This document shows positions 19,173 through 36,020 of a stretch of 64,000 bases of DNA, piece after piece. Under the pieces are notes generated by a model. It searched no databases, was not told the DNA's origin, and saw only the letters and a list, made by a program, of their open reading frames with translations. The number at the start of each line of letters is the position of its first letter. Position 1 is the first letter of the stretch. A program made the position numbers and the translations under genes. The stretch lies in NCBI RefSeq assembly GCF_058153355.1, contig NZ_CM177019.1; one strand, written 5' to 3'.

Positions 19173-20305
19173 GACTGAAGATTCTCCGCAAGCCAGGTAG
19201 CCAGTTCGCCCGGCGTCATTGCGGCTATTTGTGCGCCGACATTTACCAGCGCCTGGGCTGTATCGCGGTCGTAGCAAGGTGTTGCGGTGCTATCGAGCGC
19301 TGCCAGTCCCAGCACTTTGATGCCGCTCTGGACACACTTTTTCACCTGATGCGTCAGCAATGATGATGAACCCCCTTCATAAAAATCGCTCACGAGGATG
19401 ATGACGCTTTTCGCTGGTTGTTCAATAAGTTGCCGACCATATTCCACGGCGCTGGCGATATTGGTCCCGCCATCCAGCTGTACTTTCATTAATAACTCTA
19501 CCGGATCGGCAACGTCTGCCGTGAGATCGACGACGCTTGTGTCAAAAGCGACCAGATGGGTGCGGATACCGGGTAACTGCCATAAACAGGCCGCCATCAC
19601 CGCTGAGTGGATCACCGAATCGACCATTGAGCCGCTTTGATCAACCAGTAACACCAGCTGCCATTGTTCGCTATGGCGTTTAATTCGGCTGTTAAAGCGG
19701 GGGGATTCGATATACAACTTGCCGTGTTGCGGGTGCCAGTGTTGCAGGTTGGCGCGCAGAGTACTTTTGAAATCGAAATTACGTGCCAGTGGAATAAATG
19801 AGCGGCGACGGCGATCGCGGACACCTGAAAAAGCCTGACGAACTTCCTTTGCCAGTCGCGCCATAATTTCTTCAACAACCTGGCGCACTATCCGGCGGGC
19901 GGCAGCCAGCACTTCGGGATTCATCAGATGTTTGGTGTGCAAAACGGCGCGTAGCAGGCTTTCAGAAGGCTGCATACGCTCCAGCACGTCGAGATTCGTC
20001 ACCACATCTTCAATGCCGTAGCGCAGTACGGCATCGCTTTCCAGCCGCTCAATCACCCGTTGCGGAAATAGTGTGTGAATACTGTTGATCCACTCAGGGG
20101 TGGTGAGATTTGAGTCACCTAATCCACCGGAGCGTTCACCACGCTGGAGCCGTTCAGGATCGCGCCCATACAGCCACTCCAGCGCGTGGTCTATCTGCCG
20201 GGCATTGTCATCCAGCCCACAAAGCGTCGTTTCTGCCGCTTCGCCAAGAATTAATCGCCAGCGTTGTAGCTCACGAGTGGTCAGAAGATCGTTCAGTTCA
20301 GACAT
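19169..20305 (-). CDS. yehP: von Willebrand factor A domain protein with MIDAS motif
   Basis: DxSxS MIDAS motif (LLVDQSGSM); start at MSELNDLL…, 2 nt after the yehM stop. Confidence 0.8.
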   Translation of the reverse strand: MSELNDLLTTRELQRWRLILGEAAETTLCGLDDNARQIDHALEWLYGRDPERLQRGERSGGLGDSNLTTPEWINSIHTLFPQRVIERLESDAVLRYGIEDVVTNLDVLERMQPSESLLRAVLHTKHLMNPEVLAAARRIVRQVVEEIMARLAKEVRQAFSGVRDRRRRSFIPLARNFDFKSTLRANLQHWHPQHGKLYIESPRFNSRIKRHSEQWQLVLLVDQSGSMVDSVIHSAVMAACLWQLPGIRTHLVAFDTSVVDLTADVADPVELLMKVQLDGGTNIASAVEYGRQLIEQPAKSVIILVSDFYEGGSSSLLTHQVKKCVQSGIKVLGLAALDSTATPCYDRDTAQALVNVGAQIAAMTPGELATWLAENLQS

Positions 20306-22577
20306 GGAAAACTCCCCAGTGTTGCAGTGATGCCAGTGCCTGCTGTTCGAGTTGTTGATGATGTGCAATGGCTTGCGGTGGACAATGCAACGGCATTTGC
20401 AGCGCTGAAACGGGAAGCTGTGCGAGCTGGTAATGCTCAAGCACCTGATGCGCCAGCGTCCCGCGTTCTCGTGGTGGTAGCCAGGCCATCGCCGCGCGTA
20501 AATCGGGCAGGGCGTTAATAAAATCGTCGTCACTCAGTTGATTTAAATGACTACTGAAACCGGCGATAAATGCCGGCTGACAGGCCAGTTGATGGCGGGC
20601 CAGCGCCAGCAAACCGTGCAGCGCCTCGCCAGATTGTGCCGGGGATAATTGTGCCAGCATCGTCAGCGCCGCTTCGGCACTGGCGTTGGGATGTTCCAGA
20701 CGCATCAGCGCGCCAAGGGCCGCACCGCGATCCAGCGCTGGGGCATGAATCGCCTGACTGCGACGTTCCAGTAAGGCTACCGCCGCAGAAAGCGAAACGC
20801 CGGGTAAATTAACGCCGCTATTTAGATCGCGCAGGATATGGCAAAGCGCCTGCCAGCTATGCAGGTGAGCGTGAAACTCCTTCTCATCCGGCCTGCCGTT
20901 GGATTCACATAGCCACAGTGTGCGATCGATAGCCGCGTATAACGTCGTCTGTAATATCTGCGCGCCTTGCATACCGCTGATTTCATCGAGCTGCCACAAG
21001 GCGTAAAGCACTTCCAGCGCCTGGCCCATTTCGGCAAACTGATTTTCCTTGGCGATTAATAATGTGAGTTGTTCCAGTAATTGCTGACTGAAGGACGCCA
21101 GACCCGCTAACGCGGCCTGGCTAAGACATGTGGTGATGCCGCTGATTCCACCCGCGTCCAGCATATCGGCTTCTAATTTATTGCGTGCGGCCTCCTGGAG
21201 TGTGGCACCAAAGCAGGCGGCTTCAATCAATGCCGCATGTTGGCTAAGTGGCTGGGTTAATGTCCAGCGTTCTTCACCGTTGCCCGCCAGCGTCAGTGTA
21301 CTTCCTTGCTCGCGCACAATGCCGGGAATCTCCAGTATTACCAACTGATGTAGCACCTGACTTTGCGCCAGTCCATCGGGGGTAAAGCGATTTAAGGTAA
21401 GCTCCGCCGGAAGAGAGATTCCGGTACGTTCCAGTTCGTAGGTGACATCTTTTGGCAGAGGTGGCTGTGGCGTCGAGGGGGCAAGTTTACCGAATCCGTC
21501 ACCTGCTAATGTGTCTATCAACGTTACCAGTATCGGATCGGTATCGGGATGAATAACGTCGCGATAGCTCCACGGCAACGGCGCATTCAAGGCTTCTTTA
21601 ATCAGCGAGCCTGCTATGGCATCCAGCCAGTCAGTGCGTAACGGTAGTGTATGACCGCGCAACTGTGCCAGCGCCATCGCATGTAAATGAGCGGCAGCCA
21701 TATCCGCGGTTGAAGCAGGCAATTTGTGCTGGCGCAAACGGGTAAGAACCGTTTTTAGTAGTTGTTCACCTGCCTGCTGCAAGCCCCACCGCCAGCACCA
21801 GTTTTGCCAGACCGGGGCAGGCATTCCTGAAAGGTATCCTGCCAGCACATCAAGGCGCTTTTCACTGTATGGCGTGAGATAGCAACCTGTAACGGCATCA
21901 TCCTGTGAGAGCAATTCTGGCTTGTTAATTTCTTGCGGGCATTCGCGCCACATTTTTGCCAGTGCCGGAGCGTGCCAGCCTCCGCAGACGACTAATACGT
22001 CGCCATTATTTTGCTGCATCGCCCATGCAATCCAGCGGGCCATAAAGGCTTCGCGCTGACGATTGAGTGCATCGCCGGAGGCGTCGCCCCGCAGTTGTGC
22101 AAAATAGTGCGCCAGTGCAGAGGGTAATATAGTTTGCTGGCTTTCATCTTCGAACAAGTGATCCCACAAGGTGTCGCTGTTATCCATGCGGGTGGCACGC
22201 AGCAGAAAGGCCTGGCTTTCCTCTTGCATATCAGGCGAATCATCCTCTTCTTCACTTTGTGCCCAGCAAGGCAAATCGATGAAGTAAGTTTGTGCCTGAA
22301 TACGACGTGCGGCTTGTAGCGCCTGCCACTCCGGCGAAAATTCAGCAAATGGCGTCCAGGCACCACGCCCGGGGGCCGCACCGTCCTGATACTGGCAATA
22401 ACTGTAAATAGCTACCGGAAGCTGGTGGGCTAACAACAGTTCGTCTACCCGGTCATTAAAATCAGCCGGGCCTTCAATCAACACGTATCGTGGCCGCTGG
22501 CTTTCGATTAACGATTTCACCAGCCGGGCGCAGGCCGGACTATGATGCCGGATGCCGACAATTAACGGCTCGCTCAT
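20298..22577 (-). CDS. yehM: Large uncharacterised protein (759 aa) encoded between the MoxR ATPase and the vWA protein
   Basis: Start at MSEPLIVGIRHHSP…, 10 nt downstream of the yehL stop with GGAAAG upstream. I recognise no catalytic motif. Confidence 0.75.
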   Translation of the reverse strand: MSEPLIVGIRHHSPACARLVKSLIESQRPRYVLIEGPADFNDRVDELLLAHQLPVAIYSYCQYQDGAAPGRGAWTPFAEFSPEWQALQAARRIQAQTYFIDLPCWAQSEEEDDSPDMQEESQAFLLRATRMDNSDTLWDHLFEDESQQTILPSALAHYFAQLRGDASGDALNRQREAFMARWIAWAMQQNNGDVLVVCGGWHAPALAKMWRECPQEINKPELLSQDDAVTGCYLTPYSEKRLDVLAGYLSGMPAPVWQNWCWRWGLQQAGEQLLKTVLTRLRQHKLPASTADMAAAHLHAMALAQLRGHTLPLRTDWLDAIAGSLIKEALNAPLPWSYRDVIHPDTDPILVTLIDTLAGDGFGKLAPSTPQPPLPKDVTYELERTGISLPAELTLNRFTPDGLAQSQVLHQLVILEIPGIVREQGSTLTLAGNGEERWTLTQPLSQHAALIEAACFGATLQEAARNKLEADMLDAGGISGITTCLSQAALAGLASFSQQLLEQLTLLIAKENQFAEMGQALEVLYALWQLDEISGMQGAQILQTTLYAAIDRTLWLCESNGRPDEKEFHAHLHSWQALCHILRDLNSGVNLPGVSLSAAVALLERRSQAIHAPALDRGAALGALMRLEHPNASAEAALTMLAQLSPAQSGEALHGLLALARHQLACQPAFIAGFSSHLNQLSDDDFINALPDLRAAMAWLPPRERGTLAHQVLEHYQLAQLPVSALQMPLHCPPQAIAHHQQLEQQALASLQHWGVFHV

Positions 22578-22587
22578 GCATCTTTCC

Positions 22588-23676
22588 TCACGGCAGGCGG
22601 TGGCGAGCTTGATAATAAGCCTGCCAGTGAGCTTCTTTATGTGTAGCGACACGTTGTTCGAAGTAACGGCGCAGACGTGCGCGATCTTCTTCGTTATCTT
22701 TGACGATGGTTCCGGCAATACAGTCCACCAGGTCGGCTGGCTCCCCCGCGCGATTCGCTAAAAACCAGGCGCGGACGCCCACGGCGTGGGCCACGTTAAC
22801 GGCTTCAGCGGTGGACATAATCGCTGTAAGGGTATCCATTGACGTTTTCTTTTCGCCGTTGGCACGCAGATCGCGGAAGGTGCGTACCAGTAACTCAAGT
22901 ACCGCGTCAGGCACTTTATGCGGAATACCGCTATGGGCCAACAAACGCGCCGAAGCACTGGCGACCAGTTCCAGCTCCTGGGCGAAATCCATAATCGGAA
23001 AAACCGTTTCAAAATCGAATCGGCGTTTTAGTGCCGCGCTCATTTCATTAACGCCGCGATCGCGGGTATTGGCGGTGACAATAATATTAAAGCCTTCCCG
23101 CGCATAGAGCTGACTGGCTTCACCAGTGAGTTCCGGCACCGTCATAACCCTGTCAGAAAGCATACCTAACAGACAGTCTTGTACTTCCAGTGGTGTACGC
23201 GTTATCTCTTCAAAACGGACAATTTTGCCGTCGCGCATTCCCTGGTAGAGCGGGGCAGGGACCAGCGCTTCCGTTGACGGACCATGATTAATAAGCAGGG
23301 CGTAGTTCCAGCCGTACTTGATTTGATCTTCGGTGGTAGATGCGCCGCCCTGGATAGTTAACCCAGCATCGCCGCTAATAGCGGTTGCCAGTAATTCAGA
23401 CAGGAGAGATTTTGCGGTGCCAGGTTCCCCCACCAACATCAAACCGCGCCCGGTAGCAAGAGTGACTAACATGCGTTCGACAGCGGAGGGACTAATCACG
23501 ACTTTACGGCTGATATTTTGCGCGCTATCGCCAAGAATAAAAGAACGGGCCGCAGGCAAACTTAACTGCCAACCGGGCGGGCAAGGTGCGTTATCATTTT
23601 GCTTTAATTTTGCCAGTTCATCGGCGTATAACACAGCGGCAGGCGGACGCTGCAGATGATTATTCTGCGGTGACAT
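22588..23676 (-). CDS. yehL: MoxR-like AAA+ ATPase
   Basis: Walker A GEPGTAKS (codons at about 23407..23430); size and layout typical of MoxR/RavA-type ATPases that partner with vWA proteins. Confidence 0.85.
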   Translation of the reverse strand: MSPQNNHLQRPPAAVLYADELAKLKQNDNAPCPPGWQLSLPAARSFILGDSAQNISRKVVISPSAVERMLVTLATGRGLMLVGEPGTAKSLLSELLATAISGDAGLTIQGGASTTEDQIKYGWNYALLINHGPSTEALVPAPLYQGMRDGKIVRFEEITRTPLEVQDCLLGMLSDRVMTVPELTGEASQLYAREGFNIIVTANTRDRGVNEMSAALKRRFDFETVFPIMDFAQELELVASASARLLAHSGIPHKVPDAVLELLVRTFRDLRANGEKKTSMDTLTAIMSTAEAVNVAHAVGVRAWFLANRAGEPADLVDCIAGTIVKDNEEDRARLRRYFEQRVATHKEAHWQAYYQARHRLP

Positions 23677-23785: not shown

Positions 23786-23867
23786 ATAAAAAAACCTGCT
23801 GGTGAGGCAGGTTCTTTTATTTACTACTTTGACGATAACTTGCTGATTGTGCAACATTTCGTACCAA
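23786..23867 (-). ncRNA. orzO: Putative OrzO-like antisense sRNA (type I antitoxin), about 80 nt
   Basis: Minus-strand promoter (-35 TTGCAA, 17-bp spacer, perfect -10 TATAAT), an 18-nt 5' segment complementary to the zorO-like 5' UTR with one G-U wobble, and an intrinsic terminator. Transcript ends are inferred. Confidence 0.5.
23793..23813 (-). terminator. Rho-independent terminator (stronger on the minus strand)
   Basis: 7-bp stem aacctgc/gcaggtt with loop tggtgag, followed on the minus strand by TTTTTTTATTT. Confidence 0.6.
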
Positions 23868-24106: not shown

Positions 24107-24196
24107 ATGGACACGCTGACACAAAAGTCAACCGTGCTCATTGCCGTACTGGAGTTATTAGTGGCTCTGTTGCGGTTGATTGATTTGTTGAAGTAA
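24107..24196 (+). CDS. zorO: 29-aa hydrophobic peptide, type I toxin-like (ZorO/DinQ/TisB class)
   Basis: AAGGAG 5 nt upstream of ATG; translation MDTLTQKSTVLIAVLELLVALLRLIDLLK is a single amphipathic/TM helix resembling known type I toxins. Not in the supplied ORF track (below cutoff). Confidence 0.55.
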   Translation: MDTLTQKSTVLIAVLELLVALLRLIDLLK

Positions 24197-24249: not shown

Positions 24250-24570
24250 CTATTTTTCTATTTGTTGGATGAATATATTTTGTAGTTCACGATTAAAAAT
24301 TGCTATTACAGTTTTAGGTGATTCACCTCGTAATTTACGCTCATCAATAAATTCATCTCTTATATAAATCAACGCATCATTTATTAGCGGGTCGACATCT
24401 TCTCGATCACGTTGATGAAATGTTGGATGTAGCCGGAATCGCTCCAACCGGTAGACGGAACCAGTAAATAATTCAGAGCATTTATGGATCTCAAGTCTGA
24501 AGGAAAACGGATCTTCAGGTACAGGGACTTCATAATCATAAGTAGCGACCAGCTCTTTTTGCACGATCAT
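24250..24570 (-). CDS. yehK: Small uncharacterised protein (106 aa)
   Basis: Intact ORF 60 bp downstream of yehI on the same strand. Confidence 0.75.
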   Translation of the reverse strand: MIVQKELVATYDYEVPVPEDPFSFRLEIHKCSELFTGSVYRLERFRLHPTFHQRDREDVDPLINDALIYIRDEFIDERKLRGESPKTVIAIFNRELQNIFIQQIEK

Positions 24571-24630: not shown

Positions 24631-27600
24631 TTAATGGAAAATGACGTCAGGTGCGCTTAACGCTTCACTCAAATCAAACGTATCGAGTTCGGCAAAAGTG
24701 ACAGATTTATTGTCACGGTACACTCGAAGAGAACGGAAGCTCATTAGCGCTTTGCTATCAGCACTGTAGTGGTTAAAACCGGGTGAAAACTTAAGGACCA
24801 GCCGATACTCGCCCAGGTCATAGACACATGCGTCCTCAAAACCTGACTCCCAGCCTTTGTATCGCATTCCCATAAGTTGCCCAACGGTTGCGGATTTACC
24901 TTCCCAGCGAGTCAGGCTGTTACTGGCTGACTCGTCAGGTGTGAGCAGCACTGTGCGCCGCATCAACTGGCGAAAAGGCGGCATAATTTCGTAATCGGCA
25001 AAAACCTGTGCAAATTCACTGCGCATTTCTGCTGTCATTTCTAACGGGTGGGCAATGCCAATCAGAGCATCCGCAGGCAGGTCAATTGGCTCATCTTGTG
25101 CGTTGCAGAACTCCCCCTCAGCGGCCACGCGAAAGGCGTTGAGTAAACGACGCGGTTCATTTGCCGGATAAACCGCCCATATTAATCGCTGAGTAACCAG
25201 GCGAGTAAAGGGATGATTAACAAACAGAGAATGAAAATCTGCCAGCGACCAGCGTCGGGTGGTGCGTAGGGCAGTTTCAAGACGCGGGAGCAGGTTTTTG
25301 CTCACCTGAGTGGCATCTTTTTTTAGCCCTTTTAGTCGGGCCAGTGCCTCGGGTGCTTTCAGCTGATCGTCATCGGCGCGCAACCGGGGAACACTTTTCT
25401 GGCGAACGTTTTGCTGATCAAAGATAACCGGGTTGAGGTTTTCATCGAAGCGAACGGTAAACTGCCGGGGTCCAAAATCAAATATCAACGCCTGCGGATC
25501 ATCCAGGCCCAGTGTTGGGACTAATCTGTCCGCTAACTCTTCCTGGCTTAGTCCACGATTTTCTGCGACCACCTGAAGAAATTCCGCCGCGTTATCACGT
25601 AAGGGACGGGATTTCGCCCGTTGCGATATATGATGCAGCTGTATCAGCGCCATATCATTATTCATCAGGGTAAGTATGTTCAGGCCACTGACGGCGCGGG
25701 CAGATTTGCCTTCCTGTGGCCAGGCGAGGATCTGTGTTGTCAGATCCCGAGCCGTGCTTTCGTCACCAAAGAGACTTAACGCCAAAAAAGCCCAGTTGTC
25801 TTTTGCGGGGGCGCCAGCCTGTTGCCAGGCGGTGAAGAGATCCCAGGCAAAAGCGGCCAGCGTTTGTGGCTGGCAGAACGTTTTCAGTTGTTCCAGCCCA
25901 CAATAAAAACGTCCGCCCTGGGTAAAGCGCAGCATTTCGCCGATAATTTCCAGAGCATCATCAGTAACATGTTGATTATTCGTGATAATTCTCGGTCTGG
26001 ACCACATTGTCGGATGCCAGAAATCAGGGGCTTTGGGAATGCGTGCCGGGTAAATGTCCATTGGACCCTGTTTAAGTAATTGCTCCAGGGCAGGCCATAC
26101 ATCTGTATGCTGCCAGCGGTTTGCCACGGTTTGCAGTAATTCGCCATGCCCTTGTTCATACAGTAAACGCAGAGCGCTGAGTGCCGCTTCGCTGTTATCG
26201 CCAGACCTGGCAAAGATTAATGGGATCAGCGCCGTAGCCGTATGCTCCGGCCATTGTAAAATCCACTGGCGAGCCAGATTACGCTGGCCCGCAAAACGAT
26301 GCCAGACGCGGGCAACGGGCAGCGCCAGTTCTGTTGCGCCAAAATGAATCAGCAGCGGAAATATCTCTTTGGGATGTCGGGCAAAGGCGGTGATTAATCC
26401 GGGCAAAGCATCGGTACCCAGGACACTTAACAGATATTCTACCCCGGTGTAATGAAAATCAGCCGCGACAATTTGTTGCCAGCACGATACCGCCATTTCG
26501 CGCGGCATTTGCGCGATAAGATACAGGTTCCATACTCCCCAACGCTTTTCATCAGTGTAATTAAATTTGCGTTGGAAAGTTCGCCACCCCTCCATCAACG
26601 CAACACTATCTTGTGCCAGTAATGCGCTGGCGGCCTCTTCCCGGTAGTGTTTATTTTCATTCTGTTTTGCCTGATAATTGAGCAATCTTCCTACTGAAGT
26701 ATGTGTCTCTAGTTGATCGGTATCCAGAGCATCCAATTGTCCTTTGAGAATAAACTCATTAAACTTCCACCTGTGATCTTCAAAACCTAATTCCCGCAAG
26801 AAGGTATCCGCCCCTCTGTTAGCAAGACGTTCGTCAAAAGACATGGCGCTAAAATGGTCAATTGCAGTTTGCTGTTCCGGCGTCCAGTGTTTATTCGGCG
26901 ACCTGTACGCTTGCGGTACAAGCGTAAGTTCAGGTAGCGAAAAGTGAGTTATGGAAGCCTTTTTCCTGCCACGCCACGGTGGTGAAACGAGGATTTCAGG
27001 CAGACTACTGTTATCGGTGCTATCAATAACCGGTTTTGGCGAAGCCGATAAATAACTATTCACCACTGCCCGGGCTTGAGTACTTAACGACGGGATCACC
27101 TCTTCTGCCAGTTGTGGCTGCGATGCCATCAGCGTTTGTAACAGCGTACGCCAGTATTCATCACGTGCTTTTTGCTGTGCAGGCAGCTTTTTGTCTTCGA
27201 TGATAGGATAACCAGGGCGCGTAGGGGGGGCTTTTAACGCCAGTAGTTCTGCCAGTGCGGCGAGCGTCGCATGGGGAAAGTTTTTACTGTATTTAGCCAC
27301 ACGCTGCAGGCTGGGTTTGTTTTTATCGGCAACTAACAGCAAGATGCGAATAACTTGCGGATGGTTAATTTGTACCAGCAGGCTACCGCAATCTTCTTTA
27401 TGGGCATACATCGCGAGGCGTGGAACGGCTGCAATTCCTTGTTCGCGCAAAAGGGCGGCGCAGGCCGCGTAGCCGAAGTGGTTTTCATGCGACATGTAGC
27501 TGGCTTCGCGATCGCTAAATATATCCTGGCTCCAGTAGCGTTCGAGTTTTCTCACCGCTCTGGGGTCATTAGCAACAACTTTTAACCACTCCTTAGAATG

Positions 27601-28287
27601 AAAATGAGTCCGCGGGCATTCAAGGCCTACCAACTCATTGGCGATTTCTGGTTTCTCCGGGAGGATGAGTGCAATAAAAGGACGGCGAACTTGGGGTAGT
27701 CCTGGCAGTGCGGCAATGAGTTTGTCGGCGCAACGCTGCCAGCAGCTTTCCTCTGCCAGAGAGAGAGGCTTACGCAGTCGGAGATCGAATTCGTTATAGG
27801 TTTCTGAGCGATAACCATAACCATAGCCATAGTCCTCCTTCTGATACTGCAATGTTACTACCAGAGGATCGTTCTCATAACACCGCGCAATAAACTGGCG
27901 TGCAATCACCACCTCAGTCGCATATTCCAGCCCCTCTTGTTGGACGATTTCGTCGAGCAACTGTTGGCTGTCATTTTGCGCGATACAGGCTAGCGCCGCC
28001 ATTGTCCGGGCCGGAATTGAGGGTTTGTGCTCGCCGATCAAGTTGATGGCTTGCGTAATGGCCGACTGCCACTCCAGTGAAAAATTTTCATAACGCCAGA
28101 CAATGTTTTTTTTCTTCTCAGCAATGTGTAGCAATTTATCACCCAGTGTCTGGATGAGGCTTTCAGTGATAACAGGCACCGGTTCGCCCGGCCAATTGCG
28201 ATGGCTGAGTGGTGTTTTGCCTTTTTTATATTTCAGTTCCAGTTGGGCGTTATCCGCCAGCCACGGTAATTCCTTGTCCATGCTCAT
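24631..28287 (-). CDS. yehI: Very large DUF4132-family protein, paralog of the two upstream MolR-like ORFs but lacking their N-terminal WGR-like domain
   Basis: 1218-aa ORF; central and C-terminal regions align visibly with the two upstream paralogs (for example …DFGPRQFTV.FDE.L.P… and …FADYE..PPF.QL…). Start lies 3 nt after the upstream gene's stop. Confidence 0.8.
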   Translation of the reverse strand: MSMDKELPWLADNAQLELKYKKGKTPLSHRNWPGEPVPVITESLIQTLGDKLLHIAEKKKNIVWRYENFSLEWQSAITQAINLIGEHKPSIPARTMAALACIAQNDSQQLLDEIVQQEGLEYATEVVIARQFIARCYENDPLVVTLQYQKEDYGYGYGYRSETYNEFDLRLRKPLSLAEESCWQRCADKLIAALPGLPQVRRPFIALILPEKPEIANELVGLECPRTHFHSKEWLKVVANDPRAVRKLERYWSQDIFSDREASYMSHENHFGYAACAALLREQGIAAVPRLAMYAHKEDCGSLLVQINHPQVIRILLLVADKNKPSLQRVAKYSKNFPHATLAALAELLALKAPPTRPGYPIIEDKKLPAQQKARDEYWRTLLQTLMASQPQLAEEVIPSLSTQARAVVNSYLSASPKPVIDSTDNSSLPEILVSPPWRGRKKASITHFSLPELTLVPQAYRSPNKHWTPEQQTAIDHFSAMSFDERLANRGADTFLRELGFEDHRWKFNEFILKGQLDALDTDQLETHTSVGRLLNYQAKQNENKHYREEAASALLAQDSVALMEGWRTFQRKFNYTDEKRWGVWNLYLIAQMPREMAVSCWQQIVAADFHYTGVEYLLSVLGTDALPGLITAFARHPKEIFPLLIHFGATELALPVARVWHRFAGQRNLARQWILQWPEHTATALIPLIFARSGDNSEAALSALRLLYEQGHGELLQTVANRWQHTDVWPALEQLLKQGPMDIYPARIPKAPDFWHPTMWSRPRIITNNQHVTDDALEIIGEMLRFTQGGRFYCGLEQLKTFCQPQTLAAFAWDLFTAWQQAGAPAKDNWAFLALSLFGDESTARDLTTQILAWPQEGKSARAVSGLNILTLMNNDMALIQLHHISQRAKSRPLRDNAAEFLQVVAENRGLSQEELADRLVPTLGLDDPQALIFDFGPRQFTVRFDENLNPVIFDQQNVRQKSVPRLRADDDQLKAPEALARLKGLKKDATQVSKNLLPRLETALRTTRRWSLADFHSLFVNHPFTRLVTQRLIWAVYPANEPRRLLNAFRVAAEGEFCNAQDEPIDLPADALIGIAHPLEMTAEMRSEFAQVFADYEIMPPFRQLMRRTVLLTPDESASNSLTRWEGKSATVGQLMGMRYKGWESGFEDACVYDLGEYRLVLKFSPGFNHYSADSKALMSFRSLRVYRDNKSVTFAELDTFDLSEALSAPDVIFH

Positions 28288-28290
28288 TCC

Positions 28291-31200
28291 TTATTCAAAC
28301 AGGGCTTCGATGTCGTTAATTAACTCGCTAGCGGTGATGTCATCGAGTGCGGAGAACTGCGCTTCCTGTGTTGAATTAATCCCCCAGCCATAGCTTTCTG
28401 CTTTGCCTTCCCATAGCCACAGCTTGCTTAAGAGTTGCTCGGCACTGAGTTCGGCTGGCGACATACCAACTGCAAATCCTTCATCGATTTCCATGATTAA
28501 TGACCAGCGGCCCAGAGGTTTGATCATCCAGCCGATCCAGCCACCGTCCTGCGGTTCACCACGCATCCAGCCTTTATTCGCCAGCCCCATTACCCGACCG
28601 CTCGGGCATTTTCTGCCTGCCCAGCGGGTCAATTCGCTGGCATTGCGCTCGGTTTCTGTCAGGGCGTAACTGTTACGGTCGAGCTGGCGGAACGGCGGTA
28701 GCAGTTCGTAGTCGGCAAAAAGCTGACCAAAGGCGGCAGCATCCGTGGGTGATATTTCCAGAACGTGAGGAATGCCAACAGAGATATCGCCTTCCGGCAG
28801 GGTGAAAAGATCATCGTCAGCGGTGCTGTAGCTGTTATCTTCCGCCACACGGAAGCACGCCAGTAACTGGTTGTCTGCGCTATAAATGCCCCAAATCAGA
28901 CGGCGGGTTAAGTGGCAGACCAGCGGATGCTCAACCAGAAAGAGCTGAAAGTTTTCTGGCGACCAGCGGCGGCGCAGGCACATGGCGGATTCCAGCCTTG
29001 CCACCTGCTGGGCGGCAACGGTACGCGCATCTTTTTTCAGCAGTTTGTAGCGGTTAACTGCATCGTTCGCTTGAGTTTCATCATCGCTTTTGTTCGGTTT
29101 AGGCAAGTCTTTCAGGCGGCTGCCGGAAGCATCACGCACAAACGGTTTTAAGGTTTCATCAAAGCTGACGGTGAACTGCCGTGGCCCGAAATCCAGCAGC
29201 AGCGAACCGTTATCATCCAGACCGAGATCCGGTGCTAACCGGTCTTCAAGCTCCGCCACCGTGAGTTCGCGGCTCTCGGCAATGTCGGCAATTTTTTCTT
29301 TTGCCCGCTCCTGTAATGCTTTGAATTTCAGTTTCTGGGCGATGCCGTTAAGCTGCATCAGGGCGATATCACTACCGATAGCAGCGAGAATATCCAGCCC
29401 GACGGTGGCGCGTTTATGCTGGGATTCACCAGGCCAGGCGCGAATCAAAGGCGTCAGTTTGCGGGCGGTATCATCGTTGCCGAGAACACCTAACGCAGTG
29501 AACGCCCAGCTTTCTTTCGACGGTGCGCCAGCGGTCTGCCAGGCGGTAAACAGATCCCAGGCAAATTCAGCCAGTGAGTCGGCGGTACAGGCATCTTTCA
29601 CCTGCAATAACCCCGCATACAGAGCCTCTTCCTGAGGGAAGCGGAGCATTTCACCGAGGTGGAGGAGGGCGTTATCTGGCAGTGATTGGGCGTTTGCTTT
29701 TAATACCGGGCGTGTCCAGAGCGATGGCTGATAAAAGGCCGGAAGTGTCGGGATTTTAGTCGGGTGATTATCTAAGGGATCGAGCGCAAGTAGAGCGTTC
29801 ACCGCATCGGTTACTTCCGGCTGGTTATAACGCTGGGCGATTTCTTGCAGTAATGACGGATAACCACTTTCAATCAACATACGTAAGGCGGCGCGGGCGT
29901 TATCCTGGGCTTCACCAGCTTTGCCGAGTGCCGCAGGCAACAGGCCGATAATGGCATGTTCCGGATATTTCAGCAGCCAGGTGCGGGCGTCTTGTCGTAG
30001 AGTTTTGAGTTTGTTAAAGGCGCGGGCGACGGCAGGAGCCAGTTCCGTTGCGGCAAAATAATTAGCAACCGCAAAACCTTCTTGAGGGTAGCGTGAAAAC
30101 GAGTGTAGAAAACCACTCATACCTGCCAGTCGCAAATAAAGCATGACAGGTTTTACCGCGGTATGCGGCTCTTTGCTGAGAAACTCCCATAGTTTAATCG
30201 CTGTTTGCATAGGTAAAAAGGGAAGTGAGTTGAGATGCCACTCCCCCTGATACGGTGCATGGTGGGCTTTAAACATTTGGATGAGTGTAGCGAAGTCCTC
30301 ACGTTCCCATGCGTCAATTGCCGAGTCAGAAGCGCCGATATATTTATATGTGTCAAAATCCCAGCGGCGATACCCCAGCGAGTAAAGGAAATCTTTAGCA
30401 CCTTCACCTGGCTTATGCGATTCCCAGTCCCAATGAGTTTGAAACTCTTTTGCTTCTGTGTCGGTTATTGTGCATATGGATTTGAGTTTGAGCGGTGCTA
30501 AATCCAACACCGGAATCGTCGATTTTTTCTTTTTCGAAAGCCAGGGAGGTAAGACTAATACGGCTGGCAGTAGAGCGGCGCAGGCATGGTTTGACGGTTG
30601 TATCAGTTGTTGCTGGCATGATTTCAGCACTTCAACTGCGGCTGTCGAGAGCCAGGGAGTGACCTGTTCTGCCAGTGCCGGTTGCGAGATAAGCATCGTC
30701 ATTAGCATAATGCGCCAAGTATTCTCTTCTTTTTGCGCAAGAAGTTCCGCCAGTGCCGCCAGTGCTGCGTGTGGGAACGCAGCGCAAGCTTTCGTCATCC
30801 GATCGTGACAGCGTTTAGTTTGCCCGGCTACACGTATGAGCAGTGTTAATGCGAACGGATGATTGATATGACGCAATACATCTGCGCAGTAGTCACTTGC
30901 GGCATAGGGAGCAAATCTGGGCAGGGCTGCAACACCTTGCTCCTGTAATACGGTGGCTGACAATATCGCACCACAATAGTAATCATCAAAAATGGCATAT
31001 GGCTCGTGATATTTTTCTAATGAGGCAAGAATGTGCTCATCAGTCGCCACTATTTTTAGCCACTCAAGCGAGGGTAATTTTTTTTTCCCCAGTAGACGCT
31101 GGGCAATTTCATGTGCAATTTCTGGTTTTTCGGGTAATAACAAAGCAATTAATGGTTGCCGCCATTCTGGAATATGTGGAATTGCGGCAATAAGTTTTTG

Positions 31201-32079
31201 TGCACATTTTTGCCAGAGAGACTCTTCCGCCAGTGATAAATGTTTCCGTAGGCGTAATTCAAAACTGGAATATTGCTGCAGGTTATCAGGTGCAATACCA
31301 GACGGCAGAATAATAATGGTATTATTCGCATAATCCCATTCAATATCAATCTGTTGAAGATGTATTACTACATCAGTAGCATATTCCAGGCCACCTTCCT
31401 GAACGAGCTGATCCATAACATCCTCACGCTCTTTATATCTCGTGCACTTCAGTTCAAGTGCCGTGAGTACAGCCATTACTGGTGATGGTAACTGTGTTGT
31501 TTTCAGGCAGTCGATCTGACTGAGCGCCTGGGAGATGGCGTTTTGCCATTCTAAAGAACAGGCGCTGAAGTCAAATGTGGCTGTTTTATTATCCCGTTGC
31601 AACACGCTACAGGCTAAGCGGCGTAACTGGGTCAATTCGTCTGCTTGCTGAACAGGAACTCCGGGAAAGCGGCGATGGCTTAACGTGGTGTGTACAACTT
31701 CGGGCGGAAAAACGACAGCAATATCTTTCGCCAGCCACGGTAAAACATCATCTGTATTTTTGTCAGCCACACGGGCTTCTGCTACGCAAAAGGGTTGTTC
31801 CTGAATAATGGTGGATAAGGCCGCTACCTTGAGAGAATCCGTTACCGTTTGGGAAGGTTGCAAAGAATTATCCTTCGCTTGCCCCACATACCCCTTCTTC
31901 ACCTTCTCCGCAATCAGCCTCAGTTCCGCTTTTTCCGCCGCCGCAGCATCAGCAAAGCTTTTTACCTGGCTTTGCCCGTTGGTACTGACTTTGCCCCAAC
32001 TAATATGCAGCTCGTTTCCCTGTTGCTCCACTGCCCAGAATTTATGTGATTTTTCGTCCTGATAAATATAGGTTTTCAT
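28291..32079 (-). CDS. MolR/YehH-family protein: N-terminal WGR-like domain plus DUF4132-type body (paralog A)
   Basis: 1262-aa ORF starting MKTYIYQDEKSHKFWAVEQQGNELHISWGKV…; ends …SVLDDITASELINDIEALFE. Its ribosome-binding site (AAGGAA) overlaps the stop of paralog B. Confidence 0.8.
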   Translation of the reverse strand: MKTYIYQDEKSHKFWAVEQQGNELHISWGKVSTNGQSQVKSFADAAAAEKAELRLIAEKVKKGYVGQAKDNSLQPSQTVTDSLKVAALSTIIQEQPFCVAEARVADKNTDDVLPWLAKDIAVVFPPEVVHTTLSHRRFPGVPVQQADELTQLRRLACSVLQRDNKTATFDFSACSLEWQNAISQALSQIDCLKTTQLPSPVMAVLTALELKCTRYKEREDVMDQLVQEGGLEYATDVVIHLQQIDIEWDYANNTIIILPSGIAPDNLQQYSSFELRLRKHLSLAEESLWQKCAQKLIAAIPHIPEWRQPLIALLLPEKPEIAHEIAQRLLGKKKLPSLEWLKIVATDEHILASLEKYHEPYAIFDDYYCGAILSATVLQEQGVAALPRFAPYAASDYCADVLRHINHPFALTLLIRVAGQTKRCHDRMTKACAAFPHAALAALAELLAQKEENTWRIMLMTMLISQPALAEQVTPWLSTAAVEVLKSCQQQLIQPSNHACAALLPAVLVLPPWLSKKKKSTIPVLDLAPLKLKSICTITDTEAKEFQTHWDWESHKPGEGAKDFLYSLGYRRWDFDTYKYIGASDSAIDAWEREDFATLIQMFKAHHAPYQGEWHLNSLPFLPMQTAIKLWEFLSKEPHTAVKPVMLYLRLAGMSGFLHSFSRYPQEGFAVANYFAATELAPAVARAFNKLKTLRQDARTWLLKYPEHAIIGLLPAALGKAGEAQDNARAALRMLIESGYPSLLQEIAQRYNQPEVTDAVNALLALDPLDNHPTKIPTLPAFYQPSLWTRPVLKANAQSLPDNALLHLGEMLRFPQEEALYAGLLQVKDACTADSLAEFAWDLFTAWQTAGAPSKESWAFTALGVLGNDDTARKLTPLIRAWPGESQHKRATVGLDILAAIGSDIALMQLNGIAQKLKFKALQERAKEKIADIAESRELTVAELEDRLAPDLGLDDNGSLLLDFGPRQFTVSFDETLKPFVRDASGSRLKDLPKPNKSDDETQANDAVNRYKLLKKDARTVAAQQVARLESAMCLRRRWSPENFQLFLVEHPLVCHLTRRLIWGIYSADNQLLACFRVAEDNSYSTADDDLFTLPEGDISVGIPHVLEISPTDAAAFGQLFADYELLPPFRQLDRNSYALTETERNASELTRWAGRKCPSGRVMGLANKGWMRGEPQDGGWIGWMIKPLGRWSLIMEIDEGFAVGMSPAELSAEQLLSKLWLWEGKAESYGWGINSTQEAQFSALDDITASELINDIEALFE

Positions 32080-32091
32080 TGCTAATTCCTT

Positions 32092-35000
32092 TTAATTAAA
32101 CAGTGATTCAATGTCGTTAATCAGCTCGCTGGCGGTGATGTCGTCGAGTACGGAGAAAGTGGGTGAGGATTGCTTACCATAGCGATCATAAGGGGCGATG
32201 ATTTTTACGCTTTCGACAGGCAGCAGGTCGCTATACCCCGTTTCGCCATAAATTAATGAAAAAGGTTCTGTTTCAAGTTCGAGAGCGCCATAAGGGGTAG
32301 ATTTGCGCATCGCATAGACGCTGCCGCTTTCTTCCAGACGTTGCCAGCCTCTGCGTTCCAGCCCGACAATGCGTCCGGCCTGGCAGAGACGTCCGTTCCA
32401 GCGTGACAATTCATGGACATTACGTTCGTTATCAGCAAGGTGGTAACTACCACGTTCGAGCTGTTGGAAGGGGGGAAGCAGTTCGTAATCAGCGTAAATT
32501 TGCCTGAATGCAGCGACAGATTCAGGGGGGATTTCCAGCATATGCGGAATACCGATGTTTCCTGCTGGTAGCGTGAATAGCTCATCCTGCATATCGCTGT
32601 AAGTGCTGTCTTCTGCGACCCGGAAGCAGGCAATCAGCGTGTTTTCCTCAGTATATACTCCCCATAACAGCCGTCGGGTTAAGTGACGTACCAGCGGATG
32701 CTCCACCAGAAACAGGCGGAACTGTTCTGCCGTCCAGCGTCTGCGCTGGCACATAGCCTGCTCCAGACGATCAATCTGCTGACTGGCAATGGCGCGCACA
32801 TCTTTCTTCAATTGTTTGAAGAGGTTAACGGCGTCAGTTGCCAGTGTTTTATCATCGCTCTGATTTGGTTTGGGTAAATCTTTCAGGACTTTGCCGTTTG
32901 CATCGCGCACTACAGGTTTTAAGGTTTCGTCAAAACCAACGGTGAATTGACGTGGGCCGAAATCCAGTATCAGCGAGCCACTGCTATCAAGCCCTAAATC
33001 TGGAGCCAGGCGGTCTTCCAGTTCAGCCATTGTCAGTCCGCGATTTTCGGCGACCATATTGATTTTGTCGCGGGCGTGTTCCTGCAATGCTTTGAATTTA
33101 ATTTTTTGTGCAATGCCATTAAGCAGCATCAGCGCAATATCGCTACCGATACTGGCTAACACATCCAGCCCAGAAACCGCACGTTTATGCTGGGATTCAC
33201 CCGGCCAGACCCGGATAAGCGGGGTTAGTTTACGCGCGGTGTCGTCATTGCCTAAAATCCCCAGCGAGGTAAATGCCCAGTTTTCTTTTGCGGGCGCGCC
33301 AGATTCCATCCATGCCGTGTAGAGATCCCAGCCAAAGTCAGCCAGTGATTCCCGGGTGAAGGTCTCTTTGATGATCGCCAGCCCAGCGTAGGAGGTAATG
33401 TCGCGTGGAAAGCTCAATATTGTGCCCAGGTGGCGCATAGCGTCATCGGGCAGAGGCAGGTTGTTACTTTTAAGCCGTGGTCTGCGCCATAAGGTGAACT
33501 GATAAAAGCCGGGCAGTGGGGCGATTTTTGCAGGATATTCTTCCAGTGGATCGCTATCGAACAATGTTGCCAGCGCAGCTAAAACATCAGGTTGATTATA
33601 TCCCCGGGCGATTTCCTCAATCGTTTCTCGCTGGTTTAAATTCACCAGCAGGCGAAGCGCCTGGCGGGCACAATCACGATCTTTTCCTTTTTTGCCCAGG
33701 GCCACAGGAAGTAGCCCGGCGGCGGCATGGTGTGGGAAGTTAGCCAGCCATTTTCGGGCATCTTCATAAGACATTTTTTTCTGTAATCGCTGCGCCATCG
33801 GTAATGCTAATTCGCTGACGCCCAGGAAAAGGGTGAATATCCACAACTGTTGTGGCTTACGTTGCAGACATTTCATAAACGCAGGAATGGCCGCATCACC
33901 AAAAATCGCCAGAATTTCTCTCTCGCCGGAGAATTGCTCTTCATTAATTATTTGATTGAGAAAAGAAATAGCATGCTGAGTGGGTAGGAAGCAGAGCGCG
34001 TACAACTGCCAGTGTCTGCTTCCTTTATTATGGTATTGCGCAAACTCTGCTTTCAGCGCGGGGAAATCGAAACGTAACAGGGCCTCAACTGCGCTTTGTG
34101 GCATTATTTTTTTTTCGTATTGTTCTTCTCCGGTTCTGCTCCATTCCTTAAACCCCAGTCGCCAAAGGATTTGCTGTTCTGGCGTTAAAGGGATGAAAGA
34201 CGTTTCCCAGCTTTCCTTTTCAATTAGTGGCAGATCGGTAAATAAGGTTTGCTGTGATGCCTGATATTTCGCGATTTCACTGAATCTGGATATGTCAGTG
34301 TGACTGATTAACTCTGTAATTCCAGGTGTGATGTCAGTGACGGAAGGGATGGGAAGTACCGGTAAATCAAATACGGGTATTACATTCTTTTTCTTATTTA
34401 TTGCCCACGGTGGAGCGACAAGCAGTTCTGGCAACATATTCGCAGTGGCATACTCACATTCTTTAGCTACTGACTGAGGACGACATTCAGATAAGATGCC
34501 TGCCGCTTTAGCATTAACCCAGGGAATGACGTCGCGTACTAACTCTGGCGTGACGGTAACCAGTTTGACAAGCGCGTTGCGCCACTGTGCATCTTCATGT
34601 ATTGCCAGCAAAGTAGCATAAGCGGCAATAGCCGCAGCGGGATGTTTTTGGCAGGCTTTGCTTAAGTATTCCAGGTGCTTTTTCTTGCCATTTACACCGA
34701 GGATCAGAATTTGAATCGCATCCGGGTGATTCGTTTTCCATAGCCATTTGACAAGATCTTCAGTCTCGCTGATGCGCTCGAAGAGATAAGTGGGATTGTC
34801 AGAATGCTCTTCCGTAAACTCAGTAAGTATCCGGCTTACACCGCGCCCCCCATTATTTGCCAGCAACATTGCCAGATAAGCGCGAAAATCACGATACAAC
34901 GGTGGGAAGTCGTATTTTTCTGCTGTAGTCAGAGCTATATCATCGGTTACTACCACTCTTAACCAGGTTATCGCCGGAACGTTTTGGTCTGCATAGCGTA

Positions 35001-35889
35001 GAGCCATAGCATTGGCAATATCCGGGCGTTCAGGGAGCAGTAACGCGGCAAAAGGTTGCCGTGCTGGGGATAGCGTCGGAATAGCAGTAAGCACTTTATC
35101 CACACAGCGTTGCCACTCATCTTCTGAAGCGAGTGAAAGATGATGACATAGACGTTGATGCCAACTCGGTAGCGATTCTGCTTCGTGATTAGGTGGAATG
35201 ATGGTGGTTACTGCGCCTTTTACTGGTTTATATTTGAGTTGAAGAGCGAGAAGGGCGATTTCAACGGCACTTTCCAGACCACAGCGAATGACTAAGTCAT
35301 CGACCAGTTCATCTTGAGAGTAAGAGTTCCAAAAGCCCCAGAGCAATGCCGCATCAGATTGCGCACTCCCTGTCTGTTTATTACCCAGAATTCGCATTTG
35401 TACCTCAGCAAAAGCCTGCTGCCAGTTTTCTGGATAAGAACGGTAATTGTTGTCGGGGTCATATGCCCTGGTGTTATTCGCGATGCGCTTCCATATTTGA
35501 CCATCTTTGTGCAGATAATTGATATCTCTGGGGCGAGAGCGATGTGGAAAAGCAAATCGGTTAATATCGTCGGTTAGCGGAATGACTGCATCATCAGCCA
35601 GCCATGGGCGTTTGTTTTTACTCTCGGGTGAAGTTTTAACGTCAGGAGTGACTTTGGTGACGGGGGATATATGCACGTTTGCCGAAGCGTCTTCCACATA
35701 GCCTTTTTTCGTTTTCTCTGCGATAAGCTTCAGTTCCGCTTTTTCCGCTGCTGCAGCATCAGCAAAATTTTTTACCTGGCTTTGCCCTTGGGTACCAACT
35801 TTTCCCCAACTGATATGCAAATCGTTACCTTGCTGCTCCACCGCCCAGAATTTATGCGATTTTTCGTCCTGAAAGATAAAGTGTCTCAT
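32092..35889 (-). CDS. MolR/YehH-family protein: N-terminal WGR-like domain plus DUF4132-type body (paralog B)
   Basis: 1265-aa ORF starting MRHFIFQDEKSHKFWAVEQQGNDLHISWGKV…; same architecture as paralog A, with a diverged middle and near-identical termini. Confidence 0.8.
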   Translation of the reverse strand: MRHFIFQDEKSHKFWAVEQQGNDLHISWGKVGTQGQSQVKNFADAAAAEKAELKLIAEKTKKGYVEDASANVHISPVTKVTPDVKTSPESKNKRPWLADDAVIPLTDDINRFAFPHRSRPRDINYLHKDGQIWKRIANNTRAYDPDNNYRSYPENWQQAFAEVQMRILGNKQTGSAQSDAALLWGFWNSYSQDELVDDLVIRCGLESAVEIALLALQLKYKPVKGAVTTIIPPNHEAESLPSWHQRLCHHLSLASEDEWQRCVDKVLTAIPTLSPARQPFAALLLPERPDIANAMALRYADQNVPAITWLRVVVTDDIALTTAEKYDFPPLYRDFRAYLAMLLANNGGRGVSRILTEFTEEHSDNPTYLFERISETEDLVKWLWKTNHPDAIQILILGVNGKKKHLEYLSKACQKHPAAAIAAYATLLAIHEDAQWRNALVKLVTVTPELVRDVIPWVNAKAAGILSECRPQSVAKECEYATANMLPELLVAPPWAINKKKNVIPVFDLPVLPIPSVTDITPGITELISHTDISRFSEIAKYQASQQTLFTDLPLIEKESWETSFIPLTPEQQILWRLGFKEWSRTGEEQYEKKIMPQSAVEALLRFDFPALKAEFAQYHNKGSRHWQLYALCFLPTQHAISFLNQIINEEQFSGEREILAIFGDAAIPAFMKCLQRKPQQLWIFTLFLGVSELALPMAQRLQKKMSYEDARKWLANFPHHAAAGLLPVALGKKGKDRDCARQALRLLVNLNQRETIEEIARGYNQPDVLAALATLFDSDPLEEYPAKIAPLPGFYQFTLWRRPRLKSNNLPLPDDAMRHLGTILSFPRDITSYAGLAIIKETFTRESLADFGWDLYTAWMESGAPAKENWAFTSLGILGNDDTARKLTPLIRVWPGESQHKRAVSGLDVLASIGSDIALMLLNGIAQKIKFKALQEHARDKINMVAENRGLTMAELEDRLAPDLGLDSSGSLILDFGPRQFTVGFDETLKPVVRDANGKVLKDLPKPNQSDDKTLATDAVNLFKQLKKDVRAIASQQIDRLEQAMCQRRRWTAEQFRLFLVEHPLVRHLTRRLLWGVYTEENTLIACFRVAEDSTYSDMQDELFTLPAGNIGIPHMLEIPPESVAAFRQIYADYELLPPFQQLERGSYHLADNERNVHELSRWNGRLCQAGRIVGLERRGWQRLEESGSVYAMRKSTPYGALELETEPFSLIYGETGYSDLLPVESVKIIAPYDRYGKQSSPTFSVLDDITASELINDIESLFN

Positions 35890-35996
35890 TCTGCATCCCT
35901 GTAATTTTATCCAGTTGAATGCAGATGCTACCAGTATTTATGCGGGTTAGAGAGAGACAAAATCGCAAGAAAACAACTTTAGGAATTTATAAAGAA

Positions 35997-36020
35997 AAGG
36001 CGCTGTCGATACAGCGCCTT
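35997..36020 (-). terminator. Rho-independent terminator downstream of metG
   Basis: aaggcgctg-tcgata-cagcgcctt hairpin followed on the minus strand by TTCTTTATAAATT. Confidence 0.55.

Follow-up and report, generated by a model that had tools for sequence, protein, structure and literature searches.

Tandem DUF4132 genes behind the molR SOS box of Escherichia coli as candidate specificity subunits of the YehLMPQ MoxR-VWA machine

Pairs of a MoxR-type AAA+ ATPase and a VWA protein, such as RavA-ViaA, CbbQ-CbbO and NorQ-NorD, are chaperone-like remodelers (PMC3893208), and the working model accepted for the class is that ATP drives the remodeling of a dedicated partner. The YehL subfamily of MoxR proteins has been named since 2006, with yehL of Escherichia coli as its founding member (PMC3893208). 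The sequence analysed here is a stretch of 64,000 nucleotides (nt) from contig NZ_CM177019.1 (assembly GCF_058153355.1), hereafter called the window, in which an array of three large DUF4132 genes (copies A, B and C) lies between metG and yehK-yehLMPQ, all on the minus strand. Like RavA-ViaA, CbbQ-CbbO and NorQ-NorD, the window encodes a MoxR AAA+ protein with an adjacent VWA gene and an intact metal ion-dependent adhesion site (MIDAS). Unlike RavA, CbbQ and NorQ, YehL and YehP are always accompanied by a DUF5682 protein, a double-SWIM protein and one to many WGR/DUF4132 proteins; an expandable, polymorphic partner gene is a feature of YehLMPQ that has not been described for the RavA, CbbQ and NorQ systems. 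The DUF4132 proteins may be SOS-induced, interchangeable target-recognition subunits of a MoxR-VWA remodeling machine, an interpretation that has, in our estimate, about an even chance of being right.

The vWA-MoxR ternary (VMAP) systems (bioRxiv 10.1101/2023.09.22.558884) share with the window a MoxR protein, a vWA protein and a large third protein, together with variable putative sensors. The window differs from them in that Pfam and NCBIfam detect no VMAP, peptidase, TIR, cyclase, NACHT or EAD domain, in that its variation consists of paralogs and allelic cassettes rather than of a diversity-generating retroelement, and in its chromosomal, housekeeping context. Midasin/Rea1 resembles YehL-YehP in combining MoxR-like AAA domains with a MIDAS that grips a ligand to pull factors off a large complex, and the nearest sequences to YehL in the Protein Data Bank (PDB) are midasin AAA domains (E 3e-8 to 4e-7); the likeness is limited to the AAA domains, however, and midasin is one giant eukaryotic polypeptide that acts on pre-ribosomes. 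With respect to the WGR domain, copies A and B resemble the Bacteroides fragilis protein 2ra8 and the LIC_11051 family, in which WGR is the N-terminal part of a larger protein; unlike PARP-type enzymes, A and B have no PARP catalytic domain, and copy C has no WGR domain.

Copy A (32092..35889; this and all other features of the window are on the minus strand unless a plus strand is given) encodes 1265 amino acids (aa) that comprise a WGR domain, a helical solenoid and DUF4132, and it is missing from K-12-type strains. Copy B (28291..32079, 1262 aa) also comprises WGR, solenoid and DUF4132 and corresponds by orthology to the body of the molR pseudogene of K-12, and copy C (24631..28287, 1218 aa) is the ortholog of YehI, with solenoid and DUF4132 but without WGR. 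The similarity of the three proteins extends over nearly their full length in blastp alignments (44% identity for A/B, 37% for B/C and 32% for A/C; E 1e-174 to 0) and is far beyond chance, in agreement with an initial annotation of this DNA, made from the letters and their open reading frames (ORFs), that described three tandem large minus-strand paralogs. The motifs quoted in that annotation, DFGPRQFTV.FDE and [FY]ADYE..PPF.QL, were found in A, B and C, and the WGR-like N-terminus that it placed in the two upstream copies corresponds to the motif HISWGKV, present in A and B only. Pfam recognizes the WGR domain of A (residues 5-69, 35683..35877; PF05406, E 3.3e-18), which phmmer also aligns with PDB entry 2ra8 (E 2e-19), and DUF4132 of A (PF13569, residues 999-1182, E 1.1e-50, full model 1-179); in C, Pfam finds DUF4132 only (E 8.2e-47) and no WGR. 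The domains of B are assigned by likeness to A: its WGR-type N-terminus (residues 1-78, 31846..32079; N-terminal match to NF047464, E 7.6e-15) shares 83% identity with A in the first 60 aa, and its DUF4132 region is 70-80% identical to that of A. The intergenic gaps are 12 nt between A and B (32080-32091) and 3 nt between B and C (28288-28290), as previously noted; if the RefSeq start of the C ortholog, two codons later, is adopted, the B/C gap would be 9 nt.

In a neighbor-joining tree, A, B and C each pair with their own ortholog from the Klebsiella oxytoca complex, A being orthologous to Klebsiella copy 1, and the Klebsiella array has the same order as the window (WGR, WGR, no WGR). Because the Klebsiella orthologs match lineage by lineage, the triplet is older than the Escherichia-Klebsiella split, and A, B and C are old, anciently diverged paralogs. 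The 32-44% identity and the separate Klebsiella ortholog of each copy rule out an assembly or duplication artefact and any recent duplication; for the same reasons the three ORFs are not collinear with a single gene, an outcome that would have counted against the initial annotation.

The association with yehLMPQ, which the same annotation allowed might be confined to E. coli, extends across phyla. In a survey of 75 DUF4132 loci, with one genome per species, homologs of YehL, YehM, YehP and YehQ adjoin DUF4132 genes on the same strand at 59 loci (the full five-family set at 51 and a partial set at 8 more), distributed among Gamma-, Beta- and Deltaproteobacteria and Actinobacteria; the others are for the most part short contigs, arrays of many tandem copies, or Massilia genes that stand alone. 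The usual order is DUF4132-L-M-P-Q, with L-M-P-Q-DUF4132 in Burkholderia, and annotated records of Bacillus mycoides and Streptomyces have the same five-gene order, so that, as judged from gene content and order, the five-gene module is conserved in at least three bacterial phyla. No sixth conserved family and no recurrent defence or mobile neighbor was found around these loci, where only LysR, ABC ATPase and GGDEF genes recur. The number of DUF4132 copies per genome is one in most, two or three in Escherichia, Klebsiella, Duganella and Chitinibacter, and at least seven in Massilia; the expansions are lineage-specific, and multiple copies stand beside a single YehLMPQ set.

Several of the surveyed loci are unusual. 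Massilia loci L017, L038, L047, L062, L069 and L073 contain at least 5-8 DUF4132 ORF segments in tandem, orthologous between species, and the same genomes have DUF4132 genes that stand alone, without YehLMPQ in the nearest 10 kb (L024, L027, L048, L049, L065, L070 and L076). Locus L078 (6883-12213) encodes a 1,776-aa metagenomic protein in which HisKA and HATPase_c domains are fused to WGR and DUF4132; its gene directly follows that of an OmpR-type response regulator and precedes a MoxR AAA_5 gene. The arrangement hints at a signaling input in some lineages. At loci L079 and L080 (10001-15022), a 1,673-aa DUF4132 protein is encoded next to a DinG-like helicase (DEAD_2/Helicase_C_2) and a ParA-like ATPase, and the nearest 10 kb contain no MoxR module; not every member of the family is tied to YehLMPQ.

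In the window, all five module families (DUF4132, MoxR AAA+, DUF5682, VWA and SWIM) are adjacent and co-oriented in the order A-B-C-yehK-yehL-yehM-yehP-yehQ, and all eight genes are intact. The product of yehL (22588..23676), a MoxR-type AAA+ ATPase of the YehL subfamily, is 99% identical to annotated YehL and contains the Walker A motif GEPGTAKS and the Walker-B-like motif FEEITR, both kept in at least 90% of 58 homologs. The VWA protein encoded by yehP (19169..20305) is 98.7% identical to annotated YehP and has the intact MIDAS DQSGS...GGT...SDF, kept in at least 90% of 55 homologs. With Walker A, Walker-B-like motif and MIDAS in place, the YehLMPQ motor is predicted to be catalytically competent. 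The 759-aa product of yehM (20298..22577) is a DUF5682 protein (PF18934, E 5e-96), and all 23 of its homologs (23/23) match DUF5682 alone; a likeness of its conserved N-terminal motifs G-RHHSP-C and VVCGG-HAP to TraB/Tiki-like hydrolases is unsupported by Pfam and by a PDB profile search. The gene yehQ (17181..19172), which is intact in the window, encodes 663 aa with two SWIM zinc fingers; the Pfam SWIM matches, at residues 60-88 and 160-183, are weak, and both CxC...CxH motifs are kept in at least 90% of 53 homologs. Sequence and profile searches of the PDB gave nothing significant for YehM, YehP or YehQ.

The DUF4132 family comprises 5,656 clusters at 50% identity (E <1e-3), and most of its members begin with WGR. 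Among 42 sequences from several phyla, the C-terminal ~480 aa have a mean column identity of 66% and about 70 invariant residues, while the mean for the whole protein is 27%. The conserved module corresponds to the last 476 aa of C (24634..26061), with helical repeats and an alpha/beta DUF4132 core, and to 28294-29763 in B and 32095-33564 in A. In the AlphaFold2 model of C (predicted local distance difference test score, pLDDT, 88; predicted template modelling score, pTM, 0.82), about 900 residues form a long helical solenoid that leads into an alpha/beta C-terminal part, and the C-terminal module modelled alone, inside which the Pfam DUF4132 falls, has a pLDDT of 89; a DUF4132 protein is thus predicted to be a HEAT-like solenoid with an alpha/beta C-terminus. 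The model matched no enzyme-like fold, AFDB50 returned family members only, and PDB sequence and profile searches gave nothing significant for C or for its C-terminal module. Pfam detected no transcription-factor domain in A or C, the only HTH-like match being HTH_WhiA at a nonsignificant E of 9.7 in C. No functional study of DUF4132, the yeh genes or DUF5682 was found in the literature searched.

A LexA (SOS) box, AACTGGATAAAATTACAGGG (35897..35916), is located 9-28 nt upstream of the ATG of A, and a terminator-like hairpin (35997..36020; a 10-bp stem with 6 GC pairs, then a T-run) lies just downstream of metG, indicating that the array is probably a separate transcription unit with its own control region. 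The box matches the consensus at 13 of 20 positions; the 64 kb hold just five CTG-N10-CAG boxes whose spacer is AT-rich, and this one fits the consensus best. Seven E. coli loci carry it in the corresponding place, as do Escherichia sp. E1V33, K. oxytoca and K. grimontii. In a review table (PMC6590174), molR appears as LexA-regulated and as having a known SOS box, an entry built on Fernandez De Henestrosa 2000 and Courcelle 2001, and K-12 molR carries the upstream region of A and the same SOS box. From the position of the box before the array in Escherichia and Klebsiella, the array should be under LexA/SOS control in both genera, and DNA damage should induce A, B and C together. The initial annotation overlooked this location behind the known molR SOS box, which is the strongest functional clue. 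A paper on the DdrO/IrrE regulon of Deinococcus reports that the DUF4132 gene DRA0166 and the WGR gene DR2173 are strongly induced and names E. coli molR as a member of the LexA regulon; the induction of these genes is counted here as independent support for the link to DNA damage. The strict LexA pattern CTGT-N8-ACAG misses the real box. Conversely, an enrichment of the relaxed pattern CTG-N10-CAG (38 of 63 loci) was rejected as an artefact of the WGR coding motif F-W-E-V-E-Q: the sequence TTCTGGGAAGTGGAGCAG is a false SOS-box mimic in the first ~100 nt of WGR-type genes at loci L008-L077.

Variation of the array within the species was surveyed by megablast against 5,426 complete E. coli genomes, a search from which very divergent alleles may escape. 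The region is only 91-95% identical to E. coli genomes at the nt level, whereas control segments (metG; pbpG-dld-yohCD) are 95-99% identical to essentially all of the 5,426 (best 98.1%), and the proteins MetG, ApbC, BtsR, YehR and YehD show 100% identity with their counterparts in E. coli EC42405. Therefore, the window belongs to a somewhat divergent strain of E. coli in which the excess over the controls is confined to the DUF4132 genes. An origin from E. fergusonii, to which the best protein matches pointed, is excluded by the same flanking proteins and control segments. The alleles of A (32092-35889) and C (24631-28287) in the window are closest to E. fergusonii proteins (95-97% aa identity) and 83-93% identical to the common E. 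coli alleles; the occurrence of such alleles in an E. coli background suggests interspecies allele sharing or transfer.

Two hypervariable central cassettes were delimited, one in A (residues about 465-735, 33685..34497) and one in C (residues about 396-680, 26248..27102). The cassette of A is 58-68% identical to that of EC42405 at the aa level, with saturated synonymous divergence (dS), compared with 90-100% in its flanks; the cassette of C is 20-47% identical to that of K-12 YehI, compared with 92-100% in its flanks. Between E. coli alleles of A and of C, central identity ranges from 20% to 65% with saturated dS, and the breakpoints differ from comparison to comparison, which indicates a mosaic. 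The centre of A falls into two main allelic classes of about 70% identity (121 Escherichia proteins), and that of YehI/C into at least three classes about 45% identical, across which the C-terminal module is mostly 92-97% identical. The cassette of A in the window has more than 90% nt identity in only 28 genomes, and that of C is covered to at least 80% in only 48 of 5,319. Gene conversion of cassettes among A, B and C is ruled out, as the centres of the paralogs are only 19-41% identical. The ratio of nonsynonymous to synonymous substitution (dN/dS), computed by the Nei-Gojobori method between the window and two E. coli loci, is 0.28 for A, 0.19 for B and 0.25-0.30 for C, 3-6 times that of yehL (0.04-0.06) and yehP (0.04-0.07); values for yehM, yehQ and metG are 0.10-0.13, 0.19 and about 0. 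The values of 0.19-0.30 indicate purifying selection on A, B and C.

The N-terminal part specific to A was found in 1,643 of the E. coli genomes, that specific to B in 4,233 and that specific to C in 5,322, and at least 80% of the whole three-gene query in 631; B was present too in every A-carrying genome inspected. Together with many pseudogenes and deletions, these counts confirm the expectation in the initial annotation that copy number and intactness vary between strains. Its account of E. coli K-12 was correct as to a frameshifted MolR-type pseudogene beside yehI and incomplete as to yehI, which is itself an intact DUF4132 gene: the K-12-type locus consists of metG, one frameshifted DUF4132 pseudogene (molR), and intact yehI, yehK and yehLMP, and K-12 yehQ has an internal stop. 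The translated body of K-12 molR is 82-94% identical to B at the aa level versus 40-59% to A. In the two-copy haplotype, the WGR-type gene (L002 13023-16958 in K-12 MC4100; L084 5826-9754 in Nissle 1917) has the composition of an A/B chimera: the upstream 141 nt are 94-100% identical to A, the first ~100 coding nt are A-like (88-94%), and from about +160 on the gene is 92-98% identical to B, so that the switch lies within the WGR-coding stretch, where A and B share 80-92% identity. The combination of an A-like 5′ end with a B-like body indicates that the two-copy haplotype arose when the 5′ ends of A and B recombined, with deletion of the stretch between them. K-12 molR, with the same upstream region as the window and a body orthologous to B, is accordingly a decayed, frameshifted A/B chimera that lost the A copy, whereas the window has the ancestral three-gene array beside an intact yehLMPQ.

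Other strains are damaged in other ways. In K-12, B and yehQ are broken and A is absent; in O157:H7 TT12B, A, B, yehM and yehQ are broken; in JEB8, yehL and yehM are broken; and in Nissle 1917, yehK is frameshifted. E09 and AR_0015, both clinical, have the same deletion joining yehI to yehM; the resulting fusion of truncated yehI to truncated yehM (L083 1487-5179 in E09, L088 1-2736 in AR_0015) takes out yehK and yehL, and A and B stay intact ORFs. In sublineage L1a of sequence type ST131, the resistance transposon TnMB1860 with blaCTX-M-15 is inserted in the region (PMC9334617). As these lesions show, E. coli strains have inactivated the system repeatedly and independently; the window represents a fully intact version.

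The remaining features of the region are neighbors of the array. The gene yehK (24250..24570) encodes 106 aa, 96% identical to annotated YehK, and homologs of it were found at only two of the 75 surveyed loci, both Escherichia, which makes yehK an Escherichia-only gene. The spacer between yehK and yehL is 573 nt long and carries a zor-orz type I toxin-antitoxin locus (23788-23861, minus strand, and 24107-24196, plus strand), with an Rfam match to OrzO-P antitoxin RNA at 90.6 bits and a 29-aa ZorO-type ORF, MDTLTQKSTVLIAVLELLVALLRLIDLLK. Fozo et al. 2010 described zor-orz between yehI and yehL and as absent from MG1655, and their locus matches that of the window; in Escherichia, it sits between the DUF4132 array and yehLMPQ. 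On the other side of the array, metG (36030-38063) has 219 matches on E. coli plasmid records, nearly all of them covering at least 80% of the gene, which is unexpected for an essential tRNA ligase gene.

The proposed role of the DUF4132 proteins as specificity subunits starts from paralogy, domain content, conservation, cross-phylum synteny, motor motifs, the LexA box and population polymorphism, all of which are observed. The conserved C-terminal module (66%) beside a variable center (20-65%) argues for an adaptor, and the presence of one to at least seven DUF4132 copies per single YehLMPQ set, with the Massilia orphans, argues for one motor with many partners. In the mechanism envisaged, DNA damage would lead to LexA-controlled induction of A, B and C in Escherichia and Klebsiella, probably as a co-transcript; the near-invariant 480-aa C-terminal module would dock each DUF4132 protein on YehLMPQ; the variable solenoid center would select the target, with the WGR of A and B, a candidate DNA-binding domain, adding to the selection of a putative DNA target; and the MoxR hexamer and its MIDAS cofactor would remodel or extract the target with ATP, as other MoxR-VWA pairs do. 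The paralogs and allelic cassettes would then be alternative specificity subunits of one motor.

A number of observations count against this proposal. The adaptor role is drawn from the synteny and the conservation pattern, and the same pattern would fit DUF4132 proteins that are clients rather than adaptors. Binding of DNA by WGR is extrapolated from PARP-type proteins, and C has no WGR. Between the array and yehL, Escherichia has yehK and a type I toxin-antitoxin locus, and no LexA box was found before yehK or yehL in the window; given this separation, the motor may not be co-induced with the array. None of the 60 other loci tested has a LexA box before its array, and Cheo-type LexA boxes were not found upstream of the Bacillus, Streptomyces and Mycolicibacterium modules, so control by DNA damage is not universal. 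Lastly, the frequent loss of array and motor in E. coli indicates that the system is dispensable in many niches.

If the DUF4132 proteins are instead clients, the MoxR-VWA chaperone would act on them as substrates, maturing or activating them, and the paralogs would be isoforms of one working protein, comparable to the large third subunit of AAA+/VWA chelatases or to Rubisco for CbbQ-CbbO. Large chelatase subunits are similar in size to the DUF4132 proteins of ~1,200-1,270 aa. The synteny and conservation data serve this explanation as well, YehP has a faint match to a putative cobaltochelatase family (E 0.004, far under cutoff), and known MoxR-VWA pairs act on dedicated client complexes (PMC3893208). 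However, no enzyme-like fold or cofactor-binding family was detected in the DUF4132 proteins, and a working surface would be expected to be conserved, whereas the center is hypervariable; client status is accordingly judged improbable. The recurrent inactivations in K-12, O157:H7, JEB8, E09/AR_0015, Nissle and ST131 L1a would fit a locus that is a dispensable remnant, near-neutral in Escherichia, whose paralog differences and polymorphism have no functional meaning. This is a little less probable still, because all eight genes are intact in the window, the dN/dS of A, B and C (0.19-0.30) signifies purifying selection, three lineages have persisted from a time before Escherichia and Klebsiella separated, and both the 66% identity of the C-terminal module across phyla and the conservation of the LexA box across genera are at odds with neutrality. 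The old name of molR implies a transcription factor that regulates molybdate metabolism; databases still carry the labels "molybdate metabolism regulator" and "MolR family transcriptional regulator", and one comparative paper terms WGR the DNA-binding domain of MolR-like transcription factors. A solenoid protein of ~1,200 aa with no helix-turn-helix or other transcription-factor domain is hardly such a regulator, the conserved neighbor is an ATPase module and no molybdenum gene recurs nearby, the Deinococcus DdrO/IrrE regulon paper found no co-variation of molybdate genes with the DUF4132 and WGR genes, and molR is a pseudogene in K-12 and therefore not required there for molybdate use. Such a function is very improbable.

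The initial annotation took tandem diversified paralogs next to an ATPase operon as a pattern of conflict systems, in which the DUF4132 repertoire would sense invaders and signal through the MoxR-VWA motor to growth arrest or death. Tandem expansion to at least seven copies, deeply divergent allelic cassettes with mosaic central breakpoints, E. fergusonii-like alleles in an E. coli background, presence/absence polymorphism with repeated pseudogenization, and a dN/dS 3-6 times above that of yehL and yehP all fit this idea; published proposals include MoxR-vWA conflict systems whose sensors are variable, and SOS induction is compatible with the sensing of prophages or phage infection. Nevertheless, searches against PADLOC-DB 2.0 were negative (A, B, C, YehK and YehL at E 0.01; YehK, YehL, YehM, YehP and YehQ at E 1), NCBIfam gave no match to any conflict-system family, and the only domains found were WGR, DUF4132, DUF5682 and SWIM, with no recognizable nuclease, protease, TIR-like or other effector domain. 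Homologs occur in 0 of 50,697 phage records and 31 of 72,556 plasmid records, the Escherichia locus is vertically inherited in a stable syntenic position between metG and btsSR with lineages and order common to Klebsiella, the recurrent neighbors are LysR, ABC and GGDEF genes rather than defense or mobile genes, cassette diversity is modest (2-3 classes per gene), and dN/dS does not exceed 1. An anti-phage or other conflict function is therefore unlikely, though less so than a client, relic or molybdate function, and the attribution made in the initial annotation is not upheld. A bolder form of the idea, which we consider equally doubtful, is a new class of damage-induced immune or genome-surveillance system in which an array of NLR-like solenoid receptors with swappable cassettes is served by a MoxR-VWA motor and has no known effector; it would be widespread and would detect foreign or aberrant nucleoprotein, such as replication intermediates of phages or plasmids and protein-DNA adducts, and K-12 molR would be its decayed remnant.

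That the genes are annotated, that the YehL subfamily is named and that molR is a listed SOS gene was already known. Relative to the literature searched, three links are new: that the molR SOS box fronts an ancestral three-gene array, that K-12 molR is an A/B deletion chimera, and that the array is the expandable partner of a cross-phylum five-gene MoxR module. molR has been in lists of the E. coli SOS regulon since about 2000 with no function assigned, largely because the K-12 copy is a pseudogene. The induction of DUF4132 and WGR genes in Deinococcus suggests that the link to genome stress may be general, and the recurrent inactivation of the locus, with the insertion of a resistance transposon in the pandemic ST131 lineage, makes it relevant to population genomics. 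The interpretation of the DUF4132 proteins as SOS-induced specificity subunits would unite an orphan SOS gene, molR, and an uncharacterized MoxR subfamily, YehL, in one testable hypothesis, for which natural strains with the intact system are now identified.

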